From Escherichia coli 042 (GTDB lineage: Bacteria > Pseudomonadota > Gammaproteobacteria > Enterobacterales > Enterobacteriaceae), in assembly GCF_000027125.1 (NCBI RefSeq), contig NC_017626.1: a stretch of 64,000 bases of DNA; one strand, given 5' to 3'. The notes under the pieces are model-generated. The model had not been told where the DNA came from. It saw only the letters and a program-made list of their open reading frames with translations, and did no database searches. Shown here in pieces: positions 3,384-26,391 of the stretch. How positions within the stretch are numbered: the stretch's first letter is position 1; each line of letters starts with the position of its first letter. The position numbers were made by a program, and so were the translations under genes.

Positions 3384-3746
3384 GGGGCTGATTCTGGATT
3401 CGACGGGATTTGCGAAACCCAAGGTGCATGCCGAGGGGCGGTTGGCCTCGTAAAAAGCCGCAAAAAATAGTCGCAAACGACGAAAACTACGCTTTAGCAG
3501 CTTAATAACCTGCTTAGAGCCCTCTCTCCCTAGCCTCCGCTCTTAGGACGGGGATCAAGAGAGGTCAAACCCAAAAGAGATCGCGTGGAAGCCCTGCCTG
3601 GGGTTGAAGCGTTAAAACTTAATCAGGCTAGTTTGTTAGTGGCGTGTCCGTCCGCAGCTGGCAAGCGAATGTAAAGACTGACTAAGCATGTAGTACCGAG
3701 GACGTAGGAATTTCGGACGCGGGTTCAACTCCCGCCAGCTCCACCA
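3384..3746 (+). ncRNA. ssrA: tmRNA (SsrA), 363 nt
   Basis: Starts GGGGCTGATTCTGGATTCGACGGG, contains tag reading frame gcaaacgacgaaaactacgctttagcagcttaa (ANDENYALAA*), ends GGGTTCAACTCCCGCCAGCTCCACCA. Confidence 0.97.
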
Positions 3747-3813: not shown

Positions 3814-3912
3814 CATGTCTAGCAGAGTCTACTGAGAATTGCTAGAAGCTACGCATTATGGGACCCTTATATGGACCCACCGACTGGGTCCAATAATTTG
3901 AGGGTCCAATAC

Positions 3913-5142
3913 ATGGCAAGGCAGACTAAAAAACTCACAGACACTGAAATCAAAAACACCAAACCAGCAGACAAAGAGATCAATCTCTTCGATGGTGATG
4001 GGCTACTGCTACGAATCGCTCCTTCATCAAAAGGAGGGAAGAAGAACTGGTATCTCAGATATCCAGTGCCAGTAACCAAGAAGCGCACCAAGATGAGCTT
4101 GGGTACCTACCCTCACCTCTCATTAGCAAAGGCAAGAGCTTTGCGTGATGAATACCTGTCGTTACTTGCTAATGGTGTTGACCCTCAAGTCCACATCACT
4201 GAAAAAACTAATGCTCTGAAAGATGCCACGGAGCACACGCTACAAGCAGTTTCTCGAAAGTGGTTAGATGAGAAAATTAAGACTTCTGGCATCTCTCTAG
4301 ACCATGCAGAAGATATCTGGCGCAGCCTCGAAAAAAACATCTTTTCAACTCTGGGTGATGTTCCTATCAAAGAGATCCGCCCCAAAATGCTCAAGCAGCA
4401 TCTTGACCCAATTGAGCAGCGCGGTGTTCTCGAAACTCTACGTCGTATAATTTCCAGACTGAATGAAATCTTTCGCTATGCTGCCACGGAAGAGCTTATA
4501 GAGTTCAATCCTGCCGACAATCTCGCTCAGCGTTTCAGTAAACCTAAGAAGCAAAACATGCCTGCCCTTCCACCTGATGAGCTACCACGCTTCATGGTTG
4601 CTTTATCTAACGCATCTATACGGTTAGAAACCCGTATGCTGATCGAGTGGCAATTGTTGACGTGGGTAAGGCCCGGTGAAGCCGTTCGGGCAAGATGGTG
4701 TGATATTGATGAAGAGAGCAGATTTTGGAATATCCCTTCAGAATTCATGAAAATGAAACGCCCACATAAGGTTCCATTGAGTAAAGAAGCTCTCCGCATT
4801 TTAGAAAACATGCGCCCTATCAGTGGTCATAGAGAATGGGTTTTCCCCAGCATCAAAGCTCCCCTCAGTCATATGCATGAACAAACAGCTAATGCAGCCA
4901 TAATTCGTATGGGGTTTGGCGGAGAGCTTGTTGCTCATGGTATGAGATCTATTGCAAGGACAGCAGCCGAAGAATACGGTAAGTTTAGAACGGAGGTGCT
5001 TGAATCCGCTCTGGCTCATACTAAAAAAGATGAAATAATAGCCGCGTATAACCGTTCGGAATACCTAGTTGAAAGAGAAGAACTAATGAAATGGTGGGGG
5101 GATTATGTCAGCAGCAAAAAATATAAGATGATGGCAGCATAA
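3913..5142 (+). CDS. Tyrosine recombinase / integrase, P4 family
   Basis: MARQTKKLTDTEIKNTKPADKEINLFDGDGL... with C-terminal R..HGMRS..A....Y catalytic-region pattern; similar to but diverged from K-12 IntA; ATG at 3913 preferred over ORF-track start 3871. Confidence 0.88.
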   Translation: MARQTKKLTDTEIKNTKPADKEINLFDGDGLLLRIAPSSKGGKKNWYLRYPVPVTKKRTKMSLGTYPHLSLAKARALRDEYLSLLANGVDPQVHITEKTNALKDATEHTLQAVSRKWLDEKIKTSGISLDHAEDIWRSLEKNIFSTLGDVPIKEIRPKMLKQHLDPIEQRGVLETLRRIISRLNEIFRYAATEELIEFNPADNLAQRFSKPKKQNMPALPPDELPRFMVALSNASIRLETRMLIEWQLLTWVRPGEAVRARWCDIDEESRFWNIPSEFMKMKRPHKVPLSKEALRILENMRPISGHREWVFPSIKAPLSHMHEQTANAAIIRMGFGGELVAHGMRSIARTAAEEYGKFRTEVLESALAHTKKDEIIAAYNRSEYLVEREELMKWWGDYVSSKKYKMMAA

Positions 5143-5163: not shown

Positions 5164-6501
5164 ATGACACAGCATAAGGTGAAAGTAATGAGAATATCAA
5201 AAACATTAGAATCATTATTTACATTTCTAAAGGAAAAAGAGCAGAAAGGTCAACTATTCAATAAAGAGGCTATACTCACAGCCACCGGTTGGAAAGCGGC
5301 TACATTTAGAACTTATTGGGTTAAAGGGCAGTTATCTGACTTTATTAGCGCAATTGATGAAGATACATTTGAGGCATCAAACTGTCAAAACATCTCAGTT
5401 ATAGAGTTTTCGAAACTATTATCTCAAAGTAAGCATAGAAGAGGGTTAGGTCATAATTGCCAGTCGAAACTAGCAAAAGCATTATTAACAAAATCTAGAG
5501 ATAATATGATGCTTGCTCTTGAATTATATAATAGACCTTCAATTGAGAATAGAATGGATGCATTTGTAATGTGTTTTTGCACTTCATGGGAACAATTATT
5601 AAAAGCTATTTTGATTGAAAAAAATGGTGAAGAGTCAATTTTCAAAAAAGAAAACAAGCGAGGATTCAGAGAAACTATTTCACTAAGAGACTGCTTAGAA
5701 AAAACATTCCCATCGAATTCAAAGGTAAGAAATAATATAGAACAAATAACAGTTTTCAGAGATCAGGCTGTACACCTTTTAATGCCAGAAATACAAGGGA
5801 TAGCCTCAAGGATATTTCAGTCTGGCGTTCTTAATTATTCATCATATTTTGAAAAATTCACAGAGGTTTCTTTTCTCAATAACAATAGCACAGGAATGAT
5901 ATCCTTGGTAGGTGAGTTTAGAACACCGCCAATATCCGTACTGAAATCCATTTATGGAGAAGTAGCGACTGATATATTAGACTTAGCAACAACTCTTCAG
6001 CAAGAAGTTGATGATAAAAATGACATAGAGTATGCAATTCCCTTAAATGTAAAACTTGTTTTTGCGACATCAGATGATGATGGGAATACCATAACCTTAG
6101 CTAAAGCTGATGAGGGAATCGAGGGGCTTAAGAAGGCTCTAATTATAGAAAAACCAGTAGATAGATCAAGAACACATCCGTATTTGCAGAAGGATGCCAT
6201 TGAGCATATAAATGAAAAAATCTACGAACTTTATAGTATAGAAAAGATAGAAAAGCATTTAGTATTCAAAGATAACAAAACAGGAAAGAAAGCGATAAAT
6301 AAAAATTGCTTTGATGCTGTTATTTGTAAGAACGGATGGAAAAAATCAAATAATAAATATCATCACAAAAACAATAATCCAGAATACCACTATTATTCAC
6401 CAGCATTAGTAGATGAATTTGTCAAGAAAGCTATGACAAACGAAGATTATCTAATGAATACAAAAAAATGGTATAATGCCAGAAGAAGTAAGAAAAAGTG
6501 A
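5164..6501 (+). CDS. Hypothetical protein, about 437-445 aa, low GC, Lys-rich C-terminus
   Basis: Long ORF; alternative ATG at 5188 has an AAGGTG Shine-Dalgarno; no family assignable by eye. Confidence 0.6.
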   Translation: MTQHKVKVMRISKTLESLFTFLKEKEQKGQLFNKEAILTATGWKAATFRTYWVKGQLSDFISAIDEDTFEASNCQNISVIEFSKLLSQSKHRRGLGHNCQSKLAKALLTKSRDNMMLALELYNRPSIENRMDAFVMCFCTSWEQLLKAILIEKNGEESIFKKENKRGFRETISLRDCLEKTFPSNSKVRNNIEQITVFRDQAVHLLMPEIQGIASRIFQSGVLNYSSYFEKFTEVSFLNNNSTGMISLVGEFRTPPISVLKSIYGEVATDILDLATTLQQEVDDKNDIEYAIPLNVKLVFATSDDDGNTITLAKADEGIEGLKKALIIEKPVDRSRTHPYLQKDAIEHINEKIYELYSIEKIEKHLVFKDNKTGKKAINKNCFDAVICKNGWKKSNNKYHHKNNNPEYHYYSPALVDEFVKKAMTNEDYLMNTKKWYNARRSKKK

Positions 6502-7869: not shown

Positions 7870-8559
7870 ATGAACCAACCACAGGACTTTACAGCTCTTC
7901 TTAACAGCTTAACTCCTCAAGAGCAGCAAATGCTTTTCACGCAACTTCGCGGAAGAATTCCCATCCATCCTCTTGAACAGCAATGGAATATTACAGCAGA
8001 ATTCATTTTAGAAGCCATTGCGCGAAGCCAAGATATCACGAAACGAGGCGTAAGAGGAATCATTGCAGAGCTATGTTTCGATACATATATCATAGGTGCA
8101 ATGAAACATAAGGGCTGGATACAACATCAACTTTTTGGAGATTTACCCTATGATGCACTGATTTCTCATCCTCATGTCGGGGAAATAAAAATACAAACTA
8201 AAAACCAACGACTTGAACGTGGAGTCCCAAAATACGCAAATGGACCAATGATAAAATTCAATCCATATGTCGAAGGTTGGTATGTTTGCGAAACACAGAA
8301 AACGAGGACAGGAAAAAATGCGGAAGGGTTAGATACGAGGCCATATAGATTTGGTGAGTTTGATATACTATCAGTTTGCCTCCATCCGTCATCGGGTGAT
8401 TGGACACGATTCATGTTTTGCCCTGCATATACACTAATGCCAAGAGCGACAAATCCTGAACTAATTGCTGTTTTACAACCAGTACCACCTACACGACAAG
8501 GAAATTGGACTGATAATCTTGAGGAAGCGATTGAATGGCATTTGAACCGTAATCGTTAA
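7870..8559 (+). CDS. Putative restriction endonuclease partner of the methyltransferase (PD-ExK-like motif)
   Basis: Divergent from the methyltransferase with a short shared control region; ATG at 7870 has an AAGGG ribosome-binding site; motif [18 protein letters not shown] fits D...ExK. Confidence 0.45.
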
Positions 8560-8597
8560 AAACGGGGAATATAGCCAACTATATCTATAATATTAAA

Positions 8598-8725
8598 AGG
8601 GCCTTACGGCCCTTTCGTTTTCCCTTAAAGGGAACTCTCCCTTGGAGAGAATACATATCCCCACACTTGGGGCAAATCAATCAGCCCATTGGGCTGTACA
8701 CCACTCCCCATACATGGGGCAATCA
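8598..8725. repeat. Array of six consecutive GC-rich mini-hairpins (5-6 bp stems, 3-4 nt loops)
   Basis: GGGCC-TTAC-GGCCC, CCC-TTAAA-GGG, CTCTCC-CTT-GGAGAG, CCCCA-CACT-TGGGG, CAGCCC-ATT-GGGCTG, CCCCA-TACA-TGGGG; two units share the context TGGGGCAA(A)TCA. Confidence 0.6.
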
Positions 8726-9204
8726 GACACTTCCTGAAGTGAATATCCTCAAGGAACCATTATTAAATATAATATTAAATGTAGATTGTCAAATATATTT
8801 GAATATTTATTAAAAATATATTCACAACGACCAATCACAAATAAATTTAATCCCCCATAAATAATTAGAGGATCAAACCAAGTTCCTGATGCCTTATCTC
8901 TTTTATATCTCATGGTATATGTCTGAATGTCAAAACATGGTATATAACAACCAGAGAGCATTTTTATAGGCTGCTATTATCTGACACTCCTTTCCCCGTT
9001 GCTGTTTCCTATAAAAGAGCCAGAGATAGATAATAGCATTTTTATTTCTATCTTATTCACTCTGGATCGCTCGGCTCACAGCTTATTGGGGCGCTCGGAA
9101 CATCAACATAGGATAAAATACCTACCATTTAAATAAATCATAAGATTATACATGTCAAGATAAAGCATGAAATTATATATAGGTTTATCACGGCTATAGA
9201 TACT

Positions 9205-9516
9205 TCACTCCTGCCTCCCAATCATATCCCCAAGAAACCTTTTTCCTCGTAATTTTAATCTTGCTTTATCTTCAATGCTAATATTCGATAATTGTAATAT
9301 CAGTCCTAATATTAACTCCTTATCTACCTCTTCTACTTTACAGCCCATAGCTTTAGCTACCTCAGCACCAAGGATGATCTTCAAGCGTGTCTCTGCGCTC
9401 TTGGATAGAGATTTTTCTTTACTCTTAAGGCGATTCAGACGCATTTGAGCTGATGCTATTTTTTGCTTAATGGTTTTTTCTGATCTCGGCTTTCTACCTT
9501 TATCATCCGTATTCAT
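9205..9516 (-). CDS. mobC: MobC-like mobilisation accessory protein
   Basis: 103 aa basic protein; RL..L....E.R.K.ILGA.VAK pattern resembles RSF1010 MobC; divergent from the relaxase across the oriT-like region. Confidence 0.6.
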   Translation of the reverse strand: MNTDDKGRKPRSEKTIKQKIASAQMRLNRLKSKEKSLSKSAETRLKIILGAEVAKAMGCKVEEVDKELILGLILQLSNISIEDKARLKLRGKRFLGDMIGRQE

Positions 9517-9632
9517 AATTACTTTTCCTTCTAGTTGTCAAAAACATGGAATACAATTAAAAAAGGAAAAGGTCAAACCATAGGCAGAAGGTTGAATACT
9601 TTTTATTCCAGATTAAATAACGCAGCGCGAGA

Positions 9633-9696
9633 TGATTGTTCAAAACAATCACATTGCTGGAACAGGGTTCATCCCTGTTAATGATAGGATTCATCT
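9633..9696. promoter_or_regulatory. Copy A of a roughly 64-bp repeat: palindrome TGATTGTT-CAA-AACAATCA plus hairpin ACAGGG-TTCAT-CCCTGT
   Basis: Near-identical copy at 24961-25023; palindrome alone again at 25101-25121; lies upstream of the mobC-like gene. Confidence 0.55.
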
Positions 9697-10149
9697 CAAA
9701 AAATGATGTTTTGGTTTTAAAAATATGATATTAGTAAGCTCAAAATAAAAACATGCAACACATACGAATGCAGTCACTAACATTAATTACCTGATACTCT
9801 CCGCGTTACTTATTTTATTGAATCAATGAAAACAATTTTACCTCTTGCTTTTTGACTCTGATTTCTGGTCTTAACCTGTGAATTGTGCAACACATAAAAG
9901 TATTTATAATTTTCACTATTTATTTTAAATTCTGCTTTCCCGCCTTACGGCGAGAGACTAATTTAACTACTTTTGCCCTTACGGGCGTTTTCTAAACACC
10001 AGAATCCAATATTATTATCCTACCTCAACCGTTTATCCGATTCCTACCTTTTTAATTTCACAGTCTGTAAAACTAGAGCTATTATTTAACTATAGAAAAA
10101 CATAAAACATTGTCGTTATTTTTAGCTCCTTTAGGAGATATAAAAATAA

Positions 10150-10260
10150 AGCAATGCCCACCTATACACTGCTACGCAGTGTGTGGGGTCTACCGACGGT
10201 TGCCTGCCGCAGGCTAACACCGTTTCCTTCGGAAACAAGGTCAACGTCAACACCAGAGTT
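10150..10260. other. Candidate origin of transfer (oriT), MOBQ/RSF1010-like
   Basis: Between divergent mobC-like and mobA-like genes; inverted repeats ACACTG-CTACG-CAGTGT (10157-10188) and GTTTCC-TTC-GGAAAC (10222-10236), the latter resembling the RSF1010 oriT inverted repeat. Confidence 0.5.
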
Positions 10261-10351
10261 TTTCTTACGAAAAACTAAAACCAGCTGAGTCGTATTGGAG
10301 ATTTATATTTTGGTTTGATATTTAAATTTATTTTGAGGTTGTTTTTATTAT

Positions 10352-11860
10352 ATGGCTATTTTTCATCTGGATTTTAAAATTGTGAAACGTTCTGAAGGCA
10401 GATCTTCCGTTGCGAAAGCTGCCTATCATGCTCGTACACGTATAACAGATGAAAGAACAGGTGATACCTATGATTATAGTCGCCGTACCGATTTATACGG
10501 ACATTTCATATTAGCACCAATTAATGCTCCAGAACATATCGTGAAAGACTCTACAGCATTGTGGAATGAAGTTGAAAGAGTTGAGCGCCAGAGCAATGGT
10601 CAAACATCCCGTTATTTCGATGTTGCCATACCTGCCGAGTTAAACAATGACGACAAGAAAAGACTTGTCCTTGAGTATTGTCAGAAAAATTTCGTTGATA
10701 AAGGCATGATTGCCGATATCGCTTTCCACGATCTTGATAGCGATAATCCTCATGCTCACGTTATGTTGACATTAAAAACCATAGGCCCTGAAGGTTTTGG
10801 TAAAAAAGAAAGAAGCTGGAACGACAGAAAAATGTCTGTTATATGGCGTGAATCATGGGCATCTATGGCTAACAGCTACCTTGCTGCCGCTGGCTCGTCA
10901 GAACGTATTGACCATCGTTCTCTTCAGGCCCAGCATGAAGAGGCATTAGAAAAAGCGGCGGTAGCTTTAGATAATGAAGAAAAAGCGCTATGGCTTGCTA
11001 AAGCCGCTGAAACAAACCGTCCTCCAATGAAGCGTATCCATAGTGCCAAATGGCGTAGTAAAGCAGCACAAGAGCAAAGAGCAGCAGAACAGGCTGTTCG
11101 TGATGCTGCCAAGCAGGAAGCGGTTGAAGTCTACAAGACTTTCAGCGAACTTGATCTTGAAATCGTCGTTGATGTCAGAAGCTTCACCGTGGCTGCTCTT
11201 GCTGAACCAGAAGAGATTGTATTACCAGAAACGCGCTCCGGCTCTTCTTCTCATGAAGCACAAAGTCCTGTATTGGTAGCGCCTATTCCTCATACTCATG
11301 TGCGTGGAGTTAAATCTTACCGCGATAAAGAAAAAGTGAGTAAAGTTGTCATTAATAATATATCAGAACCAAATGTTGCTGATGCTGACATAAACACTCT
11401 TTGGAAAACATCTCCATCTAAAACCAAAAATATGGCATCCAAAAGTACCGCTGAAAGTGTTAAAAGGAAACAGGCTAATCCGCGTCAGGATAATATCTTT
11501 AAACGCTTTACAACGCTTTTGATCGGTTTCTTCAAAGAGAAATTTATATGGGCTAAGAAGAAACCTGATCCTACCGAGATTGAACATGACAGGCATGTAG
11601 CAGAAAATTACGTCTTTGATGAAGTGCTGGGTGTCTATGTATCACGCGCTGACCATGAACAACGAGCCAGATTCAACGGTGATGATAAAGAGTTCTCTGG
11701 TTACAAGCCAACACCTGATGAGATTAAGCGTTTTCCAAGCCGTCTAGCTAATACAGCACAAACTGATAGAGAGCTCGACTACATGCCTTCGCTCGTGGCT
11801 GATAAGAAATCGTTAGCACCTAAATTGAAACCAAATGCTCCCTATAAAAATAGATTATAA
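10352..11860 (+). CDS. mobA: Relaxase, MobA/MobL (MOBQ) family
   Basis: N-terminus MAIFHLDFKIVKRSEGRSSVAKAAYHARTR and NPHAHVMLT (HxH) motif parallel RSF1010 MobA (MAIYHL..., NPHCHLMIS). Confidence 0.85.
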   Translation: MAIFHLDFKIVKRSEGRSSVAKAAYHARTRITDERTGDTYDYSRRTDLYGHFILAPINAPEHIVKDSTALWNEVERVERQSNGQTSRYFDVAIPAELNNDDKKRLVLEYCQKNFVDKGMIADIAFHDLDSDNPHAHVMLTLKTIGPEGFGKKERSWNDRKMSVIWRESWASMANSYLAAAGSSERIDHRSLQAQHEEALEKAAVALDNEEKALWLAKAAETNRPPMKRIHSAKWRSKAAQEQRAAEQAVRDAAKQEAVEVYKTFSELDLEIVVDVRSFTVAALAEPEEIVLPETRSGSSSHEAQSPVLVAPIPHTHVRGVKSYRDKEKVSKVVINNISEPNVADADINTLWKTSPSKTKNMASKSTAESVKRKQANPRQDNIFKRFTTLLIGFFKEKFIWAKKKPDPTEIEHDRHVAENYVFDEVLGVYVSRADHEQRARFNGDDKEFSGYKPTPDEIKRFPSRLANTAQTDRELDYMPSLVADKKSLAPKLKPNAPYKNRL

Positions 11861-13379: not shown

Positions 13380-14030
13380 TTACCAGCTATCATTATTTCG
13401 CTTTTCAATTGCATCACGATAACGCTGTTGTTCCACAACATCCAGATTTGGATCAAATAACACACTTGATCCTTTCACAGCAATATCGGCATCAATCTCT
13501 GATTGGGGAGCATAGGCCTTATAACCATTAGGCTGTGAAGTGGCTGTGCGGATATATGTCCCATAGTGTTTCCCATTCATAGAACAACCGATGTAAGCCA
13601 ACAGGCAGGCAAACAGGAAAAAGAATGTCCATACTGTATTATAGCCGTTAATCGTATATCCACTTCCATTCACATCTGAAAACACGCCATTAAACCTGAC
13701 CGCATAGACAATCAGGAACGATGAAAGGATAACGGTTCTGCTTTTACCAACAGTTAAATGTTTACGCACAAATTTCACTGTTGGTAGTAGAGTGACCATA
13801 AAAAGAGCGATAGCAACACATACCAGCCATATAGGAAACAGTCCATATTTTTGTGTAATGTTCTGCGATACCGTCACCAAGGACAGCACCAAGAAGGCGT
13901 TGAGCAGAAAAAGTCTGACCGCCATCCATACCTTCACGTTCTTTTGCGTCTTACGGAGAAACAGCATCGGAGTCAGTGATGGTATGTTCATCAGCAGACC
14001 GATGATAAGCACCCAATAGATAGAGTTCAT
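13380..14030 (-). CDS. Polytopic inner-membrane protein (216 aa), unknown function
   Basis: Several hydrophobic helices; last gene of a three-gene minus-strand operon. Confidence 0.6.
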   Translation of the reverse strand: MNSIYWVLIIGLLMNIPSLTPMLFLRKTQKNVKVWMAVRLFLLNAFLVLSLVTVSQNITQKYGLFPIWLVCVAIALFMVTLLPTVKFVRKHLTVGKSRTVILSSFLIVYAVRFNGVFSDVNGSGYTINGYNTVWTFFFLFACLLAYIGCSMNGKHYGTYIRTATSQPNGYKAYAPQSEIDADIAVKGSSVLFDPNLDVVEQQRYRDAIEKRNNDSW

Positions 14031-14046
14031 AGCGTTCTTCCTGTAA

Positions 14047-14601
14047 TTACCGGGCTTGCCAACCGTTATTGATTTTCACCAGAACAATTTTGGCTTCTTC
14101 TGGTTCAGACATCCCTTTCACGCCAGAGAAGGCATTTTTATCAACCCAGCCCGGCACGCCATCCAGTTTCCACGTATAGGTCACTTGCGTCATTTTAACG
14201 CCATTACCCTCACTCGGTTCAGTCCAGCTTTTAACCTCAGCTACGGCACGGTGACCAACACAGGCACCATCTTTACGATCCCAAAACTCAACCTCTTGGC
14301 CTTTGTCTGTTACTTCCAGAACATCTACGCTGCTAAAGCCGTTAGGTTGCTGCGAAACATCAAGCAGTCCCTGATTAGCCAGACCTTTCAAGATTTCATC
14401 ACTGGCACTGTATCCAGCAGAACGATAGCCATGGTTGACCTTAACCGGAAAACCTTTATTGAACGTAAAGTCATTGTCCTGAAGGGAGTAGCAGACCTTA
14501 GATTTTGATATATGCTCGTTTATCGCTTTCTCAAAGTCGCCTTTTTCACCGCAGCCTGATAACAACACGGCAAGTCCTGCAATGACTAAAAATTTACTCA
14601 T
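14047..14601 (-). CDS. Lipoprotein (184 aa), unknown function
   Basis: Signal peptide with lipobox LLSGC (MSKFLVIAGLAVLLSGC). Confidence 0.65.
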   Translation of the reverse strand: MSKFLVIAGLAVLLSGCGEKGDFEKAINEHISKSKVCYSLQDNDFTFNKGFPVKVNHGYRSAGYSASDEILKGLANQGLLDVSQQPNGFSSVDVLEVTDKGQEVEFWDRKDGACVGHRAVAEVKSWTEPSEGNGVKMTQVTYTWKLDGVPGWVDKNAFSGVKGMSEPEEAKIVLVKINNGWQAR

Positions 14602-14615
14602 GGTTCTTATTCCTT

Positions 14616-15194
14616 TTAATGATTGATAGTGCCGTTTCTCAGAACAACCAGACGAACTGGCATATCGGCATTGTTTACTGTGGCGAAGCCACGAACTTCG
14701 AAGTTGTTGACTGTTCCAGTGACACTGACTTTCTGGCCTTTCTTGTAAGTAAGAACCGCATCATCAATACCAGAGTAGTAATCCAGCCAGACCATCCCGC
14801 CGCAGTAGCTTGTATCGGCTGTTTTAAAGAGCAGATAATAATTAGGGGCTGATTTGGGCATTCCCGTCATCATATCGCTGGCACTTCTGCCCTTCGTAAC
14901 CTCAAGAACAGTGGCATTGGTGATAGCGATCCTTTTGCCAGTCCATTTTTTTTCTGCTGCCATCGCATTTTCTTCATAGTCTTTGCAGACAGCACCAAGG
15001 CCAGTAATGGACGTCGCTGGACCACTATCCTGACCGGAAGCTGAAACCCGCAGCGCTTTATCAACGGTGCTGTTCAATGATGCCAGTGAAGAGTTAATTG
15101 CCCCATTAACGCTATTCACGCCTTCGTTGAGTTGCTGGCAGCCAGAAAGAAACACCAGAGAGATCGCCAGTGGTAAGAAGTTATGTCCTTTCAT
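14616..15194 (-). CDS. Lipoprotein (192 aa), unknown function
   Basis: Signal peptide with lipobox FLSGC (MKGHNFLPLAISLVFLSGC); first gene of the operon. Confidence 0.65.
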   Translation of the reverse strand: MKGHNFLPLAISLVFLSGCQQLNEGVNSVNGAINSSLASLNSTVDKALRVSASGQDSGPATSITGLGAVCKDYEENAMAAEKKWTGKRIAITNATVLEVTKGRSASDMMTGMPKSAPNYYLLFKTADTSYCGGMVWLDYYSGIDDAVLTYKKGQKVSVTGTVNNFEVRGFATVNNADMPVRLVVLRNGTINH

Positions 15195-16110: not shown

Positions 16111-16581
16111 ATGTCTGGGAAAAATCCTTTTTGGAATTATGATTATAATGCGGCGCAACGTAATAGAGAAATTGTAGACTCTTACCAACAGGCAAATGAG
16201 GCAAGGCTGGATTCTCAACAGGCGCAGTTTGAAGCGTCTATGGCTAATGACAGGGTTAGCAGAATACAGATGCAGTTGAATAACACAATCAATAGCCATA
16301 AGAAGGTTGTGGCTGATTATGAGCAACGTCTTGAAGAATATAAACAAAATTTCTTTCGTGTAGCTTTACATAAAAACATTCTCTTCAGAACGGTTCGCAG
16401 ACTTCAGGAGGAATGGCCGGATAAAAATGAATTCATCCTTGATGAAATGCAAAGACAAAGAATTTTGTGTAATCAGCAGGACTATAGAGAAAGATGGTGG
16501 AATGCCATAAAAGATAATAATCTTGCTGACGATTATCTTGAGTTTCCATTTCCTAATAGAGAGATAAAAAACAAACCATAA
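16111..16581 (+). CDS. Hypothetical protein (156 aa), charged and Gln/Glu-rich
   Basis: ORF with ATG start; no recognisable catalytic motif. Confidence 0.5.
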   Translation: MSGKNPFWNYDYNAAQRNREIVDSYQQANEARLDSQQAQFEASMANDRVSRIQMQLNNTINSHKKVVADYEQRLEEYKQNFFRVALHKNILFRTVRRLQEEWPDKNEFILDEMQRQRILCNQQDYRERWWNAIKDNNLADDYLEFPFPNREIKNKP

Positions 16582-17097: not shown

Positions 17098-17505
17098 ATG
17101 TCTGATGCTTTAAAGATCATCAACAATATTCGTACTCTCCGTGCTCAGGCTCGTGAACTGACACTCGAAACCTTGGAAGAGATGTTAGAAAAACTCACTA
17201 TCGTTGTAGAAGAACGTCGTGAAGAAGAGGCCTCATTTCTAAAACAGCAGGAAGAGAAACAGGCCAAGCTGGAAGCATTCCGTCAGAAGTTGTTGGAAGA
17301 TGGCATAGACCCGGCAGAGTTGCTTTCAACTGTTAGCCCATCTTCTTCCAAGACAGGAGCGAAACGCGCCCCACGTCCAGCTAAGTATAAATATGTTGAT
17401 ACCGATGGTTCGGAAAAGACGTGGACAGGTCAGGGCCGAACTCCTCGTGCTATCGCTGCTGCGCTCGAAGCCGGTAAGACACTGGAAGATTTCGAGATCA
17501 AGTAA
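17098..17505 (+). CDS. H-NS family nucleoid-associated protein, island-encoded paralogue
   Basis: 135 aa; ...[23 protein letters not shown]...[25 protein letters not shown] parallels the StpA encoded at 50350-50754 in this window. Confidence 0.85.
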
Positions 17506-18324: not shown

Positions 18325-19578
18325 TTATTCACTTGCCTGAGTCGCTCTTGTCGCATTTGTTTTTAAATTATTCAGCATTTGCTTATCAACCGGTTGCAGT
18401 TGTTGTCCTAACAGAGCCGCAAGCAAAATATTTGTGTCTTCTGTTCTTTCGATTTGAAGCATTTGTAATCTTAAATCAAGTGCCTGCATTCTTGCCTGCT
18501 CATGCGCAGTTTCTTTTTCATCAGCACTACTGATTTTTACCTGCCAAGCGTCAGCACCTGTTGTATCTGCATAGCGTGAATAGATCTCATATCTTAACAT
18601 TTCCCACTCTGAAGGATTATCCGGGAATGTTGTGCCGGGAAATAAGGTCGCATACTTGTTTTTTACGGAAGCATCTGACCAAGCAAGGTTTGCTCCCTGC
18701 GTAGAGCCCAATGTGGATCCTATTTTGGCCCCTCTGGAGTTCACTGATATATTACTTGCTTTTTTCATTGCCAGTACGGAATCAATGGCGTTTGTTCCAG
18801 CAGTGCTTCTGGAGACAAAGCTCGAAAAGGCCGATAAATATTCTCGACCTTCATTTGTGTCTTCTAATCCTTTGTTCTTCAATGGTTCAACGGGCAAGTT
18901 CCCTATAAGATTTCTTTTTGCCGCTTCAGCAACCTCAATCTGCTCAACAGAATAGGACTGATTCGAAACCTTATTAGACAATGCATCGGATTTAGATAAT
19001 GGTGGTGTAATCAGGCTTGATGCCGACTTATCTTTATCAGGATACTGACCTATAGTATTACACCCACCTCTGTTATATTTCACATCATCTTCGGAGCAAA
19101 CATTTATTGATACTCTGCCCATGATGTTTTTCTTGGCCTCATTTATTCTGGTATTTGCTTGTGTAAACATCTTAACGCTGTTTTCAGATAAAGCCTCTTT
19201 AGCTGAGCTTGTATTCGATCCTGCTGCACCACGACCACCTGCGCTCGTGACTTCTTCACAGGCGTTGGCATCAGGTATTCTGTTTAAGATATTTTTCATG
19301 CGCTGTTCTTGGATTGCCTGACTGGCATTACTGACAACCGCATTCTTCTGATTCTCACTGGCTGTTATGGTTGCTTGTGCCAGCTTGTCGTTCATTGAGA
19401 CTAATGTTTCAATTATTCCATTGCCCATAGATTGGGGTGAAGCCCCCATAAGATACGGTGTCAAAACCTCTTCTGTGACGGGCCAGACAGCGAAAGCTGT
19501 ATTTGTATATAATACAGAAAAACACAAAGCTGAAACCACTGTTATTCTCTTTACTTTAAATTTATTATTACTCATCAC
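18325..19578 (-). CDS. Secreted/periplasmic protein (417 aa), unknown function
   Basis: N-terminal signal peptide (…LYTNTAFAVWP); third gene of a three-gene minus-strand cluster. Confidence 0.6.
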   Translation of the reverse strand: MMSNNKFKVKRITVVSALCFSVLYTNTAFAVWPVTEEVLTPYLMGASPQSMGNGIIETLVSMNDKLAQATITASENQKNAVVSNASQAIQEQRMKNILNRIPDANACEEVTSAGGRGAAGSNTSSAKEALSENSVKMFTQANTRINEAKKNIMGRVSINVCSEDDVKYNRGGCNTIGQYPDKDKSASSLITPPLSKSDALSNKVSNQSYSVEQIEVAEAAKRNLIGNLPVEPLKNKGLEDTNEGREYLSAFSSFVSRSTAGTNAIDSVLAMKKASNISVNSRGAKIGSTLGSTQGANLAWSDASVKNKYATLFPGTTFPDNPSEWEMLRYEIYSRYADTTGADAWQVKISSADEKETAHEQARMQALDLRLQMLQIERTEDTNILLAALLGQQLQPVDKQMLNNLKTNATRATQASE

Positions 19579-19948
19579 AACACTCCTGTTAACTTATTAC
19601 CTTCTTTATTATTTAACCAATTAAATATGAACTGTCAATTTTAACAAAAATATTCATCTGGCATCCAACTTTAAAATTATTATAAAAGAAGCGTATAAAT
19701 CCAACGAAGTAGATTCCATGAACTAGCGTGGTGCTTTTATAGCTTTATCGATGAAGATAGATAGCATGAAATAACTTTACTTTTACGGGAGCATAAAACT
19801 TTATAAAAGTAATGTTTCCATTCAAAAAAGCCGTAGCAATATTTTATTTTAGATGCAGCCATTTCAACTTTGTTTATAAGAAAAAATATAAAGTGAGTTT
19901 CATTGCAGATAATAATCAGTTAGAAAGAGGACCGAAGCCCTCTTAATA

Positions 19949-22609
19949 TCACATTCCATCATTACCTTCTTTTGATGATGAACTACCACCGGAAGATCCA
20001 CTACCGCTCCCTTTCTCTGGAGCCTTAAAGCTTTCAATTGGTGAAGCTTGGGCCTGTAAACTTACAGGCAGCAACGGTCTGTTATGTTCACCAAACGATA
20101 CCGCTCTGTTAGCAGCCTTTTGAGCTACATTCATATAACCTGCTGCGCCTGCTGTATCACCAATAGCATCTGCTGCCTCAGCTGCATGGTAAGCCGAGTT
20201 AGCACTTTCAAGAGACTGATATTCATCCTGCTGATCAAGTGGGCCAGCATTACTCATATGAGTTCTGAATGCAGATCCCGTATCATTGGCTTTATTAGCC
20301 GCCAGTGCTTTCCCCTGTTGAGCCTGTTGCTGTTGTTGAAGCTCACGTTGCTGTTCACGGTCTTTGTTAATTTGCGCATTCCTGATCTGATTACCCATCG
20401 CATTTGAGGTATGGGAAACCTGATCCAACACGGTTTTGGTAAACATAGCACCTTCAACACCTTTTGATGCCGACTGTGCGTAACCCGACATGCTCTGACC
20501 ACCATGAACACCAAGCCACTTCATAATTTCATCAGGGATGATGTGAATCAGTGAAAGTGATTTCTTCACTACCGTGAACATCATTGCAATATAAACAGCA
20601 ATGAGAGCCAGTGACTCGATGATACCTATCCCGGCATTGGCTGACATCATGCCAAAAGCGCCGGAGAATGTTTCGTTGACGATCCCACCAAGGATAGGGA
20701 GCATCGTATAGGCTGCTATTAATCCTGTTATCATTAGCGCTGGTCGCATGGTTAACGATAAAACCAGACCATAACCAGCGCCACCACGACCCACTACGCC
20801 ATCACCATCTGGATGTAAATGTGTTATTACCCATAATGGTGCTGCGACCATTGCTTCAAGGCACAGGATCATCCAGCCTACGCAAACACCAAACCACATG
20901 ACGTAAGGCAGCATAGGAATGACGACGGCTAAAGTATCGCCAGCTATCCATAAAGGGATAACCAGTGGCATAACAATCCCCATAGCGCCAAATGCACCCG
21001 ATACCCAGCTTGCAGTCGCTGATGTCCATGCGCCAAGACCTGCCCCAACAACAGCAGAACTCCCTAATAACGTCCAGCCAGCGGCACTGATCGTATCCCC
21101 AAGCCCTTTAACAGCTAATAACGGGTTTATTGCCTGTAAATTGGCAGCGGTTGTGTCCGTCGAGAACGAGACGATTTTCCCTTGTTTTCTTCCATTGATA
21201 ACGCTGGAACTGAGAAAACCCGCCATTGCACCAGAAATGCTCTTATTGGCTTCACTTTGAAGAGAAGAAACTATTTTTCCAGCATCATCTGTTTTAGGGC
21301 CTACACCACTTTTACCACTGGTATTGGCTTCCGTTCGGTTTTGCGCATCAATACCATTCGCATATCTTGAAGCTGTCGTTGATTTCGCCATATCTTGAGC
21401 CACTTTTGCCATAATCGCGTTCAGGCTGTTATCGAATATATCTCCGTATTCCATTGTCGCTTGCCCGGCTACAGGAAGATTATGAGCTGCTCCATTAATC
21501 GCATCCTGCACACGGATCAGTTTCATACTCCATGCGCCAGCCATAAACCATCCGTCTTTCTGGACATTCTCTTTGAAATCATCCCACTGGTCGCCAGTGG
21601 AGAAAACTGTTCGTACTGCAGTATCAATAATGGATACATATGAGGCCGTTGCGCTGTTTATTCCGGTCTGAATATCAATATTATTATCGGCCACATACTG
21701 TTCAGCCAGCGTTTTCATACTATTATCAAGGCCGATAAATGCGGCATTGTGTGCCTCAATAACATCTGAAATATTCGTCTTTATATCCTGTGGCATATAA
21801 GCCATATACATGCCGCCAGCAGCAATGGTAGCCTGAGCTTTAGCCTGTTCGTCATAAGAAGCTTTGGCCTTCGGGTCTGTAAGCGTGATGCTTCCACATG
21901 CAGCCTTGGATACCAGTAAATTTTTATTCATATCATTACCGGCATTGCTGGCTCCATAACTGTATGTGTATAAATAGGCACCTTTCTCCGGTGTCATTTC
22001 AAACGCAGGCGTGACGTGCGGGAAGGGATCGGCTGCTGCTGATTTCTTCCATAATTCTCCCGCCTTTAACATACAGACGTTATTGATAAAGGCGGTTTTC
22101 GCTATGCGATCAAGCTCCTGATAAGATGCAGATGTGGTAATAACAGCCCCATCTGAGGGGTTGGATGCATAGGTATTCCAGACGGTATCTGCCAGACCGA
22201 CTCCCTGATTAATCATCCACAGCACCATAACCTGAGCGGCACAGAAACCACCTGCTGCCGGGAGTATCATTGCCGTGCCTAATGCAGTTCTTACGGGCAA
22301 CCACATGGAAGACCATTTCTTACCCAGCATTTCTCCGTCATGTGCCGTTGACATGGTTCCGGCAATCAGTGTGTAGGCAGCTAAAATGCCACCAACCAGT
22401 AAAACAGCGCTGTTAAGGATTGTCATTGTGCTGGCTAAGGGACTTTCCGCTAAATTGTCCGGGAATAAGATATCCAGAAACCACAGCTTTGATTTGTCTG
22501 TCTCCGGGACGGTAAATAAATCTGCGGCATAAGCTGACTGAGTTAATAACAGGCAAGCTAATATTACTAATAATATCGATACTTCTTTTTTCTTTATATT
22601 TATCATCAT
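19949..22609 (-). CDS. Large polytopic membrane protein (886 aa) with signal peptide and Gln-rich / Gly-Ser-rich C-terminus; possibly mating-pore related
   Basis: Signal peptide ...LLTQSAYAADL; many hydrophobic segments; C-terminal ELQQQQQAQQ and GSGSGSSGGSSSS low-complexity runs. Confidence 0.6.
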   Translation of the reverse strand: MMINIKKKEVSILLVILACLLLTQSAYAADLFTVPETDKSKLWFLDILFPDNLAESPLASTMTILNSAVLLVGGILAAYTLIAGTMSTAHDGEMLGKKWSSMWLPVRTALGTAMILPAAGGFCAAQVMVLWMINQGVGLADTVWNTYASNPSDGAVITTSASYQELDRIAKTAFINNVCMLKAGELWKKSAAADPFPHVTPAFEMTPEKGAYLYTYSYGASNAGNDMNKNLLVSKAACGSITLTDPKAKASYDEQAKAQATIAAGGMYMAYMPQDIKTNISDVIEAHNAAFIGLDNSMKTLAEQYVADNNIDIQTGINSATASYVSIIDTAVRTVFSTGDQWDDFKENVQKDGWFMAGAWSMKLIRVQDAINGAAHNLPVAGQATMEYGDIFDNSLNAIMAKVAQDMAKSTTASRYANGIDAQNRTEANTSGKSGVGPKTDDAGKIVSSLQSEANKSISGAMAGFLSSSVINGRKQGKIVSFSTDTTAANLQAINPLLAVKGLGDTISAAGWTLLGSSAVVGAGLGAWTSATASWVSGAFGAMGIVMPLVIPLWIAGDTLAVVIPMLPYVMWFGVCVGWMILCLEAMVAAPLWVITHLHPDGDGVVGRGGAGYGLVLSLTMRPALMITGLIAAYTMLPILGGIVNETFSGAFGMMSANAGIGIIESLALIAVYIAMMFTVVKKSLSLIHIIPDEIMKWLGVHGGQSMSGYAQSASKGVEGAMFTKTVLDQVSHTSNAMGNQIRNAQINKDREQQRELQQQQQAQQGKALAANKANDTGSAFRTHMSNAGPLDQQDEYQSLESANSAYHAAEAADAIGDTAGAAGYMNVAQKAANRAVSFGEHNRPLLPVSLQAQASPIESFKAPEKGSGSGSSGGSSSSKEGNDGM

Positions 22610-22625
22610 TACATTCCTTTGCCTC

Positions 22626-23150
22626 TTACTTCATTGAATTACTGATGCTGCTCCAGACATCGTTTCCGTTGACTGTTGCTCCCGATCCTGATGAAGAGCC
22701 AGTTCCTGTAGAAACACTTCCATTTGCGATATTCCCAATCACGGGCATATCAATAGAAATGCTTTCGGATATACTTCCGGTCAGTTGACTTACTTTTTCC
22801 CTCGCAATCGAACAGGCTTTACTTATTGCTGCTTCCTTCGTTTTTTTAATTATTGAATCCACAGATGGCAGGCTGATGCCGAGGTTACCCACAGGCCAAG
22901 CGTCCGTACAACCAATCGTCTCAAGTGACTGATTGATGTTATCCATGAAATTCTTCGCTACCGGCTCTAACTGAGCCGCATCCTGCTTCATTGCGTTATA
23001 TTGCGCTTGTTTTAATGATGAGCTGACATCCGGGCTACAGACTGCTGCATTAGCTGTGGTTGCTGAAATTAATATTGTTGCGGGAAGGATTATTTTGAAA
23101 ATGCGGACACAGACATTTGTTCGCCATTTATTTTTATTAAGTTTATTCAT
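22626..23150 (-). CDS. Secreted protein (174 aa), Ser/Gly-rich C-terminus
   Basis: Signal peptide ...ISATTANAAVCSP; 16 nt upstream of the 886-aa gene. Confidence 0.55.
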   Translation of the reverse strand: MNKLNKNKWRTNVCVRIFKIILPATILISATTANAAVCSPDVSSSLKQAQYNAMKQDAAQLEPVAKNFMDNINQSLETIGCTDAWPVGNLGISLPSVDSIIKKTKEAAISKACSIAREKVSQLTGSISESISIDMPVIGNIANGSVSTGTGSSSGSGATVNGNDVWSSISNSMK

Positions 23151-23470: not shown

Positions 23471-24235
23471 CTAAATATTATCCCAATCTAACGGTTCTTC
23501 TGGTGGCACAAGACTTGTGTTCTCTACAGAAGGGATTTCATTTATACTTTCACTCTTCACTAACCCTTGAGACTTTTTAGCCTGCAATCTTGCGATTAAC
23601 AAATCTATCTCATCTTGGTTATTAACTTCTTGTATAACTGCTTCAATTGACCTGTTTTTATCTTTAAGTATGCTATTGCCACCGCCATTGACGACTATGC
23701 TTTCGGGTTGTTCTTCCATTGCTTCTTTCTTTTTTATAATCTCTGATACAAAGCGAGCACGATCACCATTGAAGACAATAGCAGGGTTTATGAAATACCA
23801 GTTTTTCTCATTGGTTTTAGCAATAATACGTTTTTCGATGAGTTCTTTGATACCTCTGTAAAAGATAGATTCAGACAAAACAAAGTGATCTATCTTTTCC
23901 GCAAGAGACATTGCCTTTTTACAGCTCAGGTAGAAATGATCTTTGCCTATCGCATCCTGATATATTCGTAAAAATATGAAAAACACTTTGTATGCTGTTT
24001 TCGTGAGATCAAAATATGCTTTTATCTGAGAGGTATAGAGTTTAATGAACTCTTCTTTATCGACCTCTTGTGTATGCACGATATTGGCGAAGTAGCTTTT
24101 ACCTGTATCTTTCTTTTCGATAAGTTCTGTGCCTCTTGAAACGGTCAGATTTTTCTTTCGTGTTTCAATCTTTAGCTCTGTCTCAAAGCAAAAAGGATTT
24201 AACCCTAAATCTAAGTCAACGTCTATTTCATTCAT
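23471..24235 (-). CDS. Winged-helix DNA-binding protein, candidate replication initiator or regulator (254 aa)
   Basis: Central ...SIFYRGIKELIEKRIIAKT...YFINPAIVFNGDR block is winged-helix-like; paralogous layout to the 25693 gene; iteron-like array 170-250 bp upstream. Confidence 0.5.
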   Translation of the reverse strand: MNEIDVDLDLGLNPFCFETELKIETRKKNLTVSRGTELIEKKDTGKSYFANIVHTQEVDKEEFIKLYTSQIKAYFDLTKTAYKVFFIFLRIYQDAIGKDHFYLSCKKAMSLAEKIDHFVLSESIFYRGIKELIEKRIIAKTNEKNWYFINPAIVFNGDRARFVSEIIKKKEAMEEQPESIVVNGGGNSILKDKNRSIEAVIQEVNNQDEIDLLIARLQAKKSQGLVKSESINEIPSVENTSLVPPEEPLDWDNI

Positions 24236-24401: not shown

Positions 24402-24484
24402 ACTGACTGCAAAGTCAGGAAAGCTCACCGTGCAGTCAGGAATACTGACTATAGAGTCAGGAACACTGACTGTACGGTCAGTCG
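24402..24484. repeat. Iteron-like array: 3-4 tandem units of ACTGACT-N4/5-AGTCAGGAA at about 21-22 bp periodicity
   Basis: AGTCAGGAA at 24412, 24434 and 24455; ACTGACT at 24402, 24444 and 24465; each unit is an inverted repeat. Confidence 0.65.
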
Positions 24485-24960
24485 TATATTTTCGTTCTAA
24501 GCCTTATGCCGTAAGGGCTACAGGCCGGTTTTTTCTTAATTTAATTTTGCAAGAAGTAAGAGATAATACTTAATAGGATTAAAAGAAACCGGGCGATTTT
24601 TATAATCGCCATACAGGGTTTCAATATTTTAAATGATTAGTTTTTTTGAGTGCAATATTTATTTTTATTGCGAAGCATTTCTTTCTATTTCACTAACATC
24701 TTTTTTTTGAAAATCACCACCATCTATGAGCTGAAGCTCATGTGCTGACGCACGGCTACGCCCTAACTCTGAAATATGTATTTTTATCTTGATGAGGTGT
24801 CTTATTAATATTGATAGTAAAAAGAGGAAAGATCTTTTCCAGATCATTTCATCATAAAAAACAAAATTGATCCTATGTTTGAACATAGCATTACCGCAAT
24901 AACATATAGCATTTTCCCTTAAACGAATAGGAAAATTATATTTTCAGTAGCAGCACTTAG

Positions 24961-25121
24961 TGATTGTTCAAGACAATCACATTGCTGGAACAGGGTTCAT
25001 CCCTGTCAATGATGGATTTATCCATAAAGAATTGCGGCGATAGCCGCTATGAAATAAAGGAGAAACAATTTCATCTGTACTCATATATAAGCAGTGCTAA
25101 GTGATTGTTTAAAACAATCAC
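24961..25121. promoter_or_regulatory. Copy B of the 64-bp repeat (24961-25023) plus a third copy of the palindrome GTGATTGTTTAAAACAATCAC (25101-25121)
   Basis: Copy B is about 90 percent identical to copy A at 9633-9696, including hairpin ACAGGGTTCATCCCTGT. Confidence 0.55.
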
Positions 25122-25389: not shown

Positions 25390-25480
25390 AAGGTTATAGG
25401 TTCCTATAACTATGGTTATCGATATCTATAACTCGGATTATAGTTTACTATAACCATAATTAGCAAAAACTATAACTATA
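25390..25480. repeat. Cluster of about six CTATAAC / GTTATAG motifs in direct and inverted orientation
   Basis: aggttataggttcctataactatggttatcgatatctataactcggattatagtttactataaccataattagcaaaaactataactatagtt; about 200-300 bp upstream of the 25693 gene. Confidence 0.55.
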
Positions 25481-25692
25481 GTTCCGCACTGAAACTAATC
25501 TTTAAAACTGGCGAGCATTCCACTCTCAATAAACTTATTCCAGTCACGAATCAATAACGGCTTCAATTTATCCTGTTCTGTGGATGGTTTTCCACTATAT
25601 TAAAACTTTTTCCACTTATTTTTGACTTTGTTATTGACCATAGTGTTTAATCTGTTATGTATTAATAAAAACAATAACAAAAGGAAAATACA

Positions 25693-26391
25693 ATGACACA
25701 AATAGATTTTCAATCTCTTAGCAGTTTATCCCCCTTTCAGCTAACACAGTATATTGATGATCATCTTTTCACTAATGAACAGAAAGTGCAGATATTCGAA
25801 CATTATCACAGCACACATAAAGACACTACCAATATCTATTCGAGAAAAGAAAACATTAAATCTATTAAAAAAGATGTTGATTATGTCCATATGTTCACAA
25901 AAAACTTCCAGCAACTCGCAGAACTTGATATTTCCAAGAATGAGTTGAAGGTTATCGCAAGGATTTTAAACATCATGGAGTTTGGAAACTGCTTTCATAT
26001 ATCGCAAGCAAAGCTATGCCGCGACTTAGATATTAAAAAATCAAATATGTCTCTTGTCTTTAAAAAGCTCAAAAAGAAAGGGATCATTATTGATAAAGAT
26101 GGAGATCTCTTTATGAACTCCAACATATTTCTTAAGGGACAAGCGCATTCTATCAATGCCAAACAACGCCCTAATGTTAAAAAGGCACAGGGATTTAACG
26201 CTAATAATGAACCAGTATTTGATAATGTTTATACATTTAATCAAACAAATGATTCTGACAATCAACCTACAGAAGGAATGACTACATCTGAGCCACCAAA
26301 AACATCTGATAGCTGTTCTAACAAAGAAACAGATCCAGCACTGACGCTGCAGTATCCTAAAACAGAAGAGCCAGCTTATGATGATGTTTAA
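25693..26391 (+). CDS. Winged-helix DNA-binding protein, candidate Rep-like or regulator (232 aa)
   Basis: ...ISQAKLCRDLDIKKSNMSLVFKKLKKKGIIIDKDGDLFMNSNIFLKG winged-helix-like block; repeat array upstream. Confidence 0.5.
   Translation: MTQIDFQSLSSLSPFQLTQYIDDHLFTNEQKVQIFEHYHSTHKDTTNIYSRKENIKSIKKDVDYVHMFTKNFQQLAELDISKNELKVIARILNIMEFGNCFHISQAKLCRDLDIKKSNMSLVFKKLKKKGIIIDKDGDLFMNSNIFLKGQAHSINAKQRPNVKKAQGFNANNEPVFDNVYTFNQTNDSDNQPTEGMTTSEPPKTSDSCSNKETDPALTLQYPKTEEPAYDDV

Follow-up and report, generated by a model that had tools for sequence, protein, structure and literature searches.

TraY- and TraW-family channel-subunit homologs in the backbone of a mobilisable genomic island of Escherichia coli 042

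In type IVB secretion systems the central pentameric protochannel is formed by DotA and IcmX, which share an interface of more than 4000 Å2 and open into a trans-envelope conduit upon contact with the target cell (PMC12501162). Both traW and traY were reported to be essential for transfer of the plasmids R64 and pCTX-M3, and trans-complementation of either gene is possible there (PMC6112013). Entry exclusion in the IncI group is exerted by ExcA of the recipient, which targets TraY of the donor (PMC11493245, PMC4027160, PMC12282955). Members of the DotA/TraY family are regarded as analogs of VirB6, not as recognisable homologs of it (PMC4027160, PMC12501162). SGI1 is an element without a type IV secretion system (T4SS); with its TraG_S, which is 37% identical to the TraG of the helper, and the partner protein TraH_S it refits the IncC apparatus, and in this way it favours its own transfer, escapes exclusion and gains entry to cells in which the helper is already resident (PMC5389848). 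Here we describe a trio of genes from Escherichia coli 042, encoding proteins of 174, 886 and 417 amino acids (aa), which lies in a stretch of 64,000 nucleotides (nt) of contig NC_017626.1, in the following called the window. The 886-aa and the 417-aa protein are assigned to the families of TraY and TraW and are encoded by a mobilisable island that has no secretion machine of its own.

The 886-aa protein is by sequence a member of the DotA/TraY family, the type IVB or MPF_I (mating-pair formation, class I) kind of channel subunit, and by context it is an orphan. It matches the NCBIfam model TIGR04346 (DotA_TraY) with 419.7 bits at a cutoff of 100, and residues 43-700 align to positions 4-656 of the 656 model positions. 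For the Legionella-type equivalog T4SS_DotA (NF033886) the score of 280.5 bits stays below the cutoff, which is 500. The only solved structure matched at the sequence level is DotA of Legionella (9ngy; phmmer E 4.7e-42), and the aligned parts are the N-terminal transmembrane (TM) region and the C-terminal hydrophobic helices. DotA is composed of a signal peptide, TM1, TM2, a large periplasmic 'extended' domain and five hydrophobic helices (PMC12501162). The 886-aa protein has the same architecture, with a signal peptide at residues 8-32, two TM helices at 58-87 and 112-133, a large periplasmic domain, approximately five hydrophobic helices between 533 and 688, and a tail. This hydrophilic tail (701-886) is rich in A, S, G and Q and includes a QQRELQQQQQAQQ run and a GSGSGSSGGSSSS run. 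The many TM segments and the Gln-rich and Gly/Ser-rich tail noted in the original prediction are therefore both found.

From these features a resemblance to VirB6/TraG-type proteins had been deduced. A polytopic protein with a long hydrophilic tail could be expected of an F-like or P-like mating-pair protein of that type, which would have a TraH-like partner, and the DotA/TraY proteins are functional analogs of VirB6 (PMC4027160, PMC12282955). However, not a single Pfam family is matched by the 886-aa protein even at E 10, including TraG_N (PF07916) and VirB6/TrbL (PF04610), whereas the match to DotA/TraY is strong and full-length, and the partner is of the TraW/IcmX kind. Membership in the VirB6/TraG family is refuted by the Pfam result together with the TIGR04346 match, and an explanation of the locus along these lines is extremely improbable.

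The 417-aa protein is a member of the TraW/IcmX family and not a TraH, which had been listed among the T4SS components to look for. Homologs with 60-98% identity carry the precomputed annotation PF28212 ('TraW-like'). A family profile of 59 sequences (A2), obtained by an exhaustive hidden Markov model search, matches the IncI-type TraW (hhalign 99.1%, E 7.5e-19; hmmsearch E 2.5e-33) as well as a protein encoded beside TraY on a Pseudomonas MPF_I plasmid (99.4%). The 417-aa protein itself has no direct match in NCBIfam or in Pfam, of which the copy searched is apparently older than PF28212. Neither the protein nor its close profile (A1) or the broad profile A2 reached IcmX among the PDB sequences, and IcmX is reached from the 417-aa protein by structure comparison only. 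The features of the IcmX fold are found in it: long N- and C-terminal helices, an inserted loop-rich domain, and secretion.

The three genes are co-oriented, the coordinates given for them earlier are exact, and the signal peptides that had been proposed are supported by an N-terminal hydrophobic stretch and an AxA-type cleavage motif in all three proteins (TANA/AV, SAYA/AD and TAFA/VW). Only 16 nt lie between the end of the 174-aa gene and the start of traY, and a gap of 370 nt follows between traY and the 417-aa gene. In this gap a short GC hairpin, AGAGGGCTTCGGTCCTCT, was read by eye 3' of the traY stop codon, and in three related loci (L008, L017 and L019) the same spacer carries inserts of about 2.4-3 kb, for example with a GNAT gene. 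The 417-aa gene is called from a GTG start codon; the PGAP annotation of an identical record uses the ATG at 19575 instead, which gives 416 aa. The trio consists of real, working genes and not of chance open reading frames (ORFs), because it is unbroken in many genomes and because the ratio of nonsynonymous to synonymous substitution (dN/dS) is low, with 0.055 for TraY, 0.058 for TraW and 0.129 for the 174-aa gene. These values refer to a comparison with the diverged island copy L008, for which protein divergence amounts to 14-40% and synonymous sites are near saturation.

Of 5426 complete E. coli genomes 190 contain the region, in every case on the chromosome. The trio together with the backbone occurs at ssrA, in one strain at tRNA-Phe (pheV), there with wholly different defence-type cargo, and in another strain at serU. 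A scan across genera, in which each species was represented by one genome, revealed TraY proteins of 96-98% identity in Enterobacter, Kluyvera and Serratia, accompanied by the 174-aa gene, a RepL-like gene and the remaining backbone genes, and one of 89% identity in Pectobacterium. Three of these four loci have a TraW-like gene, and the contig of Kluyvera stops just past traY. Further homologs of the IncI T4SS were not found within 10 kb of TraY in any of the four genera. Homologs are also recorded under the source names Salmonella, Klebsiella, Citrobacter, Dickeya and Brenneria.

In the comparison of the ssrA with the serU island TraY (85.6%) and TraW (79.9%) are among the best-conserved proteins, whereas TraD, the lipoprotein and DUF6387 show only 39-54% identity. 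The serU relative additionally encodes a PilV-type thin-pilus tip adhesin and a type IV pilin, which are presumably the 'type IV pilus-related' genes mentioned in the literature on ROD21-like (EARL) islands (PMC6035254, PMC10763509). The trio is part of an island backbone that is moving at present, and it is under strong purifying selection. The TraY proteins of different islands vary unevenly: the membrane helices are nearly invariant, and the periplasmic stretches 181-340 and 421-440 as well as the tail 741-886 are variable. Since the parts concerned are those that touch IcmX in Legionella (PMC12501162), this pattern fits a supply of TraY and TraW as a cognate pair.

These data also bear on the view that the trio is a decaying remnant of a plasmid or of an integrative and conjugative element (ICE) with a formerly complete type IVB system and has no role at present. 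Genomic islands commonly contain mating-pair formation loci that are incomplete or decaying (bioRxiv 10.64898/2026.01.13.699239), and the relaxase gene of one relative is frameshifted. Against decay speak the dN/dS values of 0.055-0.13 at saturated synonymous sites and the fact that exactly this subset of genes is kept unbroken at each of three insertion sites and in seven genera or more, at 96-98% identity between genera. Moreover, no copy contains another T4SS fragment or pseudogene. We regard such a remnant as very unlikely.

The trio is situated in a chromosomal island of low GC content, which measures about 26 kb and starts at the 3' end of ssrA. Annotation and profile scans revealed no gene in it that resembles VirB4/TraU, VirD4 or another coupling protein, DotB or a core-complex component, so that the missing VirB4/VirD4 ATPase had been recognised correctly. 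TraU/DotO, DotB/TraJ and the DotC/D/G/H core of a type IVB locus are absent from the island and, in the relatives, from the 10-kb flanks. The idea of a mating pore is thus upheld at the level of protein families and context, namely by a relaxase, the lack of a T4SS and two homologs of essential channel subunits, although not with the protein family that had been named. The reservation that the function might be unrelated and undescribed is not supported for two of the three genes, which fall into the TraY and TraW families.

The explanation to which we incline, though without great firmness, is that the trio provides replacement subunits for an MPF_I helper in the style of SGI1 and possibly serves to evade exclusion. 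The integrase would excise the island, and the MobQ relaxase, the TraD-like protein and the candidate origin of transfer (oriT) would process its DNA. As the island is without a secretion machine of its own, it would have to borrow a conjugation apparatus, presumably the type IVB or MPF_I apparatus of a co-resident plasmid or ICE. TraY and TraW of the island would then enter the machine of the helper as a channel pair of their own. They would be supplied together because their variable periplasmic domains are expected to interlock in a large co-evolved interface, and the 174-aa protein may act as a periplasmic accessory. Two benefits can be envisaged. The channel might favour the DNA of the island, and, because ExcA of IncI recipients recognises TraY of the donor, a diverged TraY could escape the entry exclusion of the helper and allow the island to invade cells which already bear it.

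Several observations weigh against this explanation. The island TraY is only 21-23% identical to TraY of IncI1, IncK, IncL and IncM plasmids and 28% identical to that of the Pseudomonas MPF_I plasmid; its best match among 72,556 plasmids has 31%. All of these values are below the 37-78% known from SGI1, and no helper emerged from the comparison. Searches of the island for counterparts of ExcA, TraX and TraV were negative. TraW is not always located within 10 kb of the more distant TraY proteins. The machinery that transfers ROD21 was taken to be encoded elsewhere than on the island, and an F-like plasmid was suspected (PMC3976249). Plasmid 2 of a strain with an identical island (L016, NZ_OZ547151.1; one plasmid in a single record) is IncFII and not IncI. 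Its traG, encoding a VirB6-like protein for mating-pair stabilisation that is a target of exclusion, is split by insertions of the IS21 family of insertion sequences (IS).

It is also conceivable that the DotA/IcmX-like pair and the 174-aa protein need no type IVB helper at all. They could be plugged into an F-type T4SS in place of TraG and the distal cap, a version suggested by the broken IncF traG in this strain and the tie between ROD21 transfer and an F-like plasmid, or could form a recipient gate that works free of any T4SS. We think this a distinctly improbable variant. If true, it would represent either a chimeric T4SS across classes or a protochannel that is used independently of any T4SS, in each case the first of its kind.

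Further TraY homologs are orphans too, with no T4SS visible in their surroundings (L002, L009, L011 and L013), which counts against the helper model as well; these proteins could belong to further hitchers or could have a T4SS-independent role. The closest plasmid relatives, with the 31% identity mentioned above, are pINF019_3 of K. pneumoniae (L002, NZ_CP083799.1) and about 30 similar plasmids of 26-37 kb. They are typed as non-mobilisable and encode ParA, a DUF927 helicase, ArdC-like and LPD7 proteins and a long operon of unknown genes. No T4SS was recognised on them, and neither relaxase nor phage genes were recognised. A phage origin of this context is not supported, as there were no PHROG matches and nothing decisive in NCBIfam. 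In the metagenomic loci L011, L012 and L013 the neighbourhood of TraY homologs of 54% and 32% identity is conserved. It comprises an FtsH-like AAA protease, a Suv3-like helicase, two unknown genes and a GH5 'cellulase', and here too T4SS genes are missing from the surrounding 10 kb. The metagenomic loci L009 and L010 contain a TraY of 37% identity in a module like that of an integrative mobilisable element (IME), with TraD, a MobA/MobL relaxase and a RepL-like gene, beside a chaperone-usher fimbrial operon; a TraW-like gene was not found within 10 kb of it.

Such contexts raise the question of an envelope function independent of any helper, i.e. a stand-alone conduit or surface structure for secretion, adhesion, virulence or phage resistance. 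It would agree with the lack of T4SS partners in cis, with the recurrence of TraY homologs in several T4SS-less contexts and with the wide distribution of the family in pathogens, where it is tied to virulence-associated islands (PMC6035254). On the other hand, all characterised members of both families are parts of type IVB systems, and their assembly needs the core complex (DotG; PMC12501162). The cluster has no energy source, and its genes always accompany the relaxase/TraD module and, in relatives, PilV of a conjugative pilus. An envelope function of this kind is in our opinion improbable.

TraY and TraW might also sabotage or gate conjugation instead of serving it, either by forming non-productive mixed pentamers that poison the transfer of the helper or as a decoy or barrier in the recipient against MPF_I elements. 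IncI exclusion does work through TraY (PMC11493245, PMC4027160), a defensive use of exclusion factors was proposed for other IMEs (PMC11493245), and the pentameric architecture would suit dominant-negative mixing (PMC12501162). In addition, the cargo of some copies of the island is rich in defence-type genes, and the PADLOC candidate PDC-S19 lies in the island itself. However, the known exclusion factors ExcA, TraS and Eex are small proteins of the recipient and not channel subunits, and two large subunits of the essential type, together with PilV and pilin in relatives, fit building a channel better than blocking one. The trio has no PADLOC match, and TraY retains the full-length DotA architecture under strong purifying selection. 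An interference or exclusion module is therefore unlikely, and a reading of the trio as a defence system was rejected for lack of PADLOC matches.

The 174-aa protein lies outside every known family, as judged by searches against Pfam, NCBIfam, PHROGs and PADLOC, in which it has no match. It is encoded directly upstream of TraY in every locus of the island clade examined, and the family alignment (A3) contains three invariant cysteines (C38, C81 and C113). The AlphaFold model is unusable (pLDDT 43). A single weak similarity was found outside the family (hhalign E 1.7e-4, 49.5%; hmmsearch E 0.002), to an ORF directly upstream of a TraW-like gene on the Pseudomonas MPF_I plasmid. This 142-kb plasmid of P. 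aeruginosa (L004, NZ_CP116726.1; MPF_I and MOBQ) encodes at 8275-11493 two TraW-like paralogs in tandem, one of 376 aa (A2 hmmsearch E 1.9e-30) and one of 344 aa (E 5.5e-20), which are oriented divergently from TraY and preceded by the 163-aa ORF in question. It also bears a type IV CRISPR-Cas locus. IncI TraX, TraV and ExcA were ruled out as relatives of the 174-aa protein, since there is no similarity. Likewise, the Pseudomonas counterpart shows no similarity to IncI TraV, nor its neighbour to TraX, and the small ORFs upstream of the distant TraY proteins in L009 and L011 are not homologous to the 174-aa protein.

The trio and the surrounding features of the island are listed in Table 1.

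Table 1. Gene trio and accompanying features of the island (positions refer to the window)
Feature	Position	Strand	Remarks
ssrA (tmRNA), attachment site	3384-3746
Island integrase beside ssrA	3871-5142	plus	annotation in identical record
DUF3644 gene beside integrase	5164-6501		in the place of the SpnT-like gene of ICEKp258.2; PADLOC candidate PDC-S19, E 2.6e-68
Small TraD-like relaxosome accessory, divergent from mobQ	9205-9516	minus	PGAP 'conjugal transfer protein TraD' in records with this island; 57% identical to TraD of L008
Candidate oriT, two hairpins, between traD and mobQ	9622-9704	plus	direct-repeat family D1
MobQ-family relaxase	10352-11860	plus	NF041496, 259.7 bits (cutoff 200); annotated as mobQ in identical record
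Operon of two lipoproteins (192 aa; 184 aa, SEN1982 family) and a polytopic 216-aa membrane protein	13380-15194	minus	island backbone
156-aa cytoplasmic protein	16111-16581		82% identical in serU island, 97% in Enterobacter
Full-length H-NS paralog (Hfp/H-NSB type), backbone regulator	17098-17505	plus	annotation; 76% identical to copy of L008; serU/EARL literature (PMC7074111)
417-aa secreted protein, TraW/IcmX family	18325-19578	minus	predicted channel cap, partner of DotA/TraY
traY-traW spacer, 370 nt	19579-19948	minus	hot spot of cargo insertion in related islands
886-aa polytopic inner-membrane protein, DotA/TraY	19949-22609	minus	predicted channel base, analog of VirB6; TIGR04346
174-aa exported protein	22626-23150	minus	first of cluster; ORF list
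RepL-like protein, 254 aa, directly upstream of the trio	23471-24235	minus	46.7% identical to an ORF of L009 with weak Pfam RepL match; 30.5% to annotated RepL of L008
232-aa protein	25693-26391

An 83-nt element in the intergenic region between traD and mobQ is proposed as a candidate oriT from its position only. Its inverted repeats are TGATTGTT/AACAATCA and AACAGGG/CCCTGTT. A second copy of this element, with 81% identity, is located at 24950-25032, where the RepL-like gene lies on one side and the 232-aa gene on the other; another oriT is one possibility, a regulatory or origin element shared by both places a further one. The RepL-like gene is conserved to 96-98% beside the trio in the islands of Enterobacter, Kluyvera and Serratia. 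At 24403-24482 and 25392-25483 there are densely packed inverted repeats (CTGACT...AGTCAG) as well as TATAAC repeats that resemble iterons. Together with the RepL-like and the 232-aa gene, which flank them, these repeats look like a replicon module, which suggests that the excised island replicates.

For the operon of lipoproteins and a polytopic membrane protein an exclusion or immunity role is conceivable. The 156-aa protein, the conservation of which is unusually high among the variants of the island, is 40% identical to an ORF which adjoins the TraY of 54% identity in the unrelated metagenomic locus L011, and it seems to travel with TraY. Further genes of the island encode a methyltransferase, a truncated H-NS and a DUF6387 protein, and more than one RepL-like gene is present.

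On its right side the island precedes ypjA, which encodes an autotransporter of 1567 aa (30281-34984). A direct repeat of the ssrA 3' end (attR) was not found between 26 and 41 kb of the window, and for that reason the right boundary was placed at about 29.9-30.3 kb by gene content only. The interval from the island to glaH contains ypjA, split ypjC/B ORFs, tRNA-Met (37995-38070) and a ygaQ-like ORF; a record with a 100%-identical trio is without these four features and thus stems from another strain.

The identities of the genes as such are not new, because RefSeq already uses the names 'DotA/TraY family protein' and, in one record, 'TraW family protein'. What appears to be new here is the recognition of ROD21/serU-type islands as carriers of a type IVB protochannel pair. 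The accessible literature on these islands, which covers the subject incompletely, states that no T4SS is encoded and does not mention DotA/TraY or TraW, and in the literature accessible to us, again with incomplete coverage, no IME carrying MPF_I subunits was found. Islands of the ROD21-like, serU and ICEKp258.2 types occur commonly in E. coli, Salmonella, Klebsiella and plant pathogens and bear virulence and defence cargo. The DotA/TraY-IcmX/TraW pair carried by a widespread subfamily of them, along with the PilV and pilin genes of relatives, points to helpers of the MPF_I (IncI-like) kind for their movement. This has a bearing on how chromosomal islands and IncI, IncK and IncL/M resistance plasmids affect the spread of one another.

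With the ROD21-like (EARL) and serU islands (PMC6035254, PMC7074111, PMC10763509) the island of strain 042 shares a P4-type integrase at a tRNA or tmRNA gene, a DUF3644/SpnT-like gene, TraD and MobQ, a lipoprotein of the SEN1982 family, full-length and truncated H-NS, DUF6387 and a low GC content. The backbone by which EARL islands are recognised, i.e. TraD, MobA/MobQ, H-NS homologs and the SEN1982-type lipoprotein, is complete. EARL islands, however, are located at Asn-tRNA genes and have a conserved EARL integrase and attL (PMC6035254), whereas the island described here has another integrase and resides at ssrA.

Among plasmids, IncI1 R64 and IncM pCTX-M3 encode proteins of the same two families (TIGR04346 and the TraW-like PF28212), and traY and traW lie close together on one strand there as in the island. 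The gene order differs, being 174aa-traY-traW in the island and traV-traW-traX-traY-excA in the IncI type (taken from an IncI-gamma/K1 plasmid). In contrast to IncI TraY, the island protein has a low-complexity tail of 185 aa, and the island is without the other 20-plus tra, trb and pil genes. DotA-IcmX of Legionella pneumophila (9ngy; Yue et al. 2025, PMC12501162) is used for effector translocation, whereas the setting of the island is DNA transfer. The periplasmic domain of the island TraY is shorter than that of DotA and cannot be aligned with it, and the Legionella IcmX is not detected with profiles built from TraW-family sequences. VirB6 and VirB5 of type IVA systems have an analogous role as polytopic base and distal cap, and VirB6-type proteins are targets of exclusion on the donor side (PMC12282955). 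However, they have no detectable sequence homology to the 886-aa protein, and their structural similarity to the type IVB channel is limited (PMC12501162).

SGI1 (Carraro et al. 2017, PMC5389848) resembles the island in being integrative and mobilisable, with its own relaxase and no T4SS. Two of the features that define such an IME are present in the island, namely an integrase at ssrA, MobQ and TraD without a T4SS, and diverged TraY and TraW homologs. Elements of the SGI1 type are further defined by subunits that, once their expression is activated by the helper, take the place of those of the helper, enhance transfer of the island and relieve exclusion. Both elements also encode a diverged channel subunit of a kind targeted by exclusion, which is VirB6-type in SGI1 and TraY here, along with a cognate partner. 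An equivalent of the SGI1 adhesin TraN is missing from the island, though relatives have PilV. The subunits of SGI1 are 37-78% identical to their plasmid homologs, those of the island at most 31%. Finally, traN_S, traH_S and traG_S remodel an IncC apparatus of the MPF_F class, whereas the proteins of the island belong to unrelated families of the type IVB/MPF_I class. If the proposed role is true, the strategy of refitting the pore and dodging exclusion would extend from F-type to type IVB systems, and the islands would offer a natural and tractable experiment on interchangeable parts of the DotA-IcmX protochannel.

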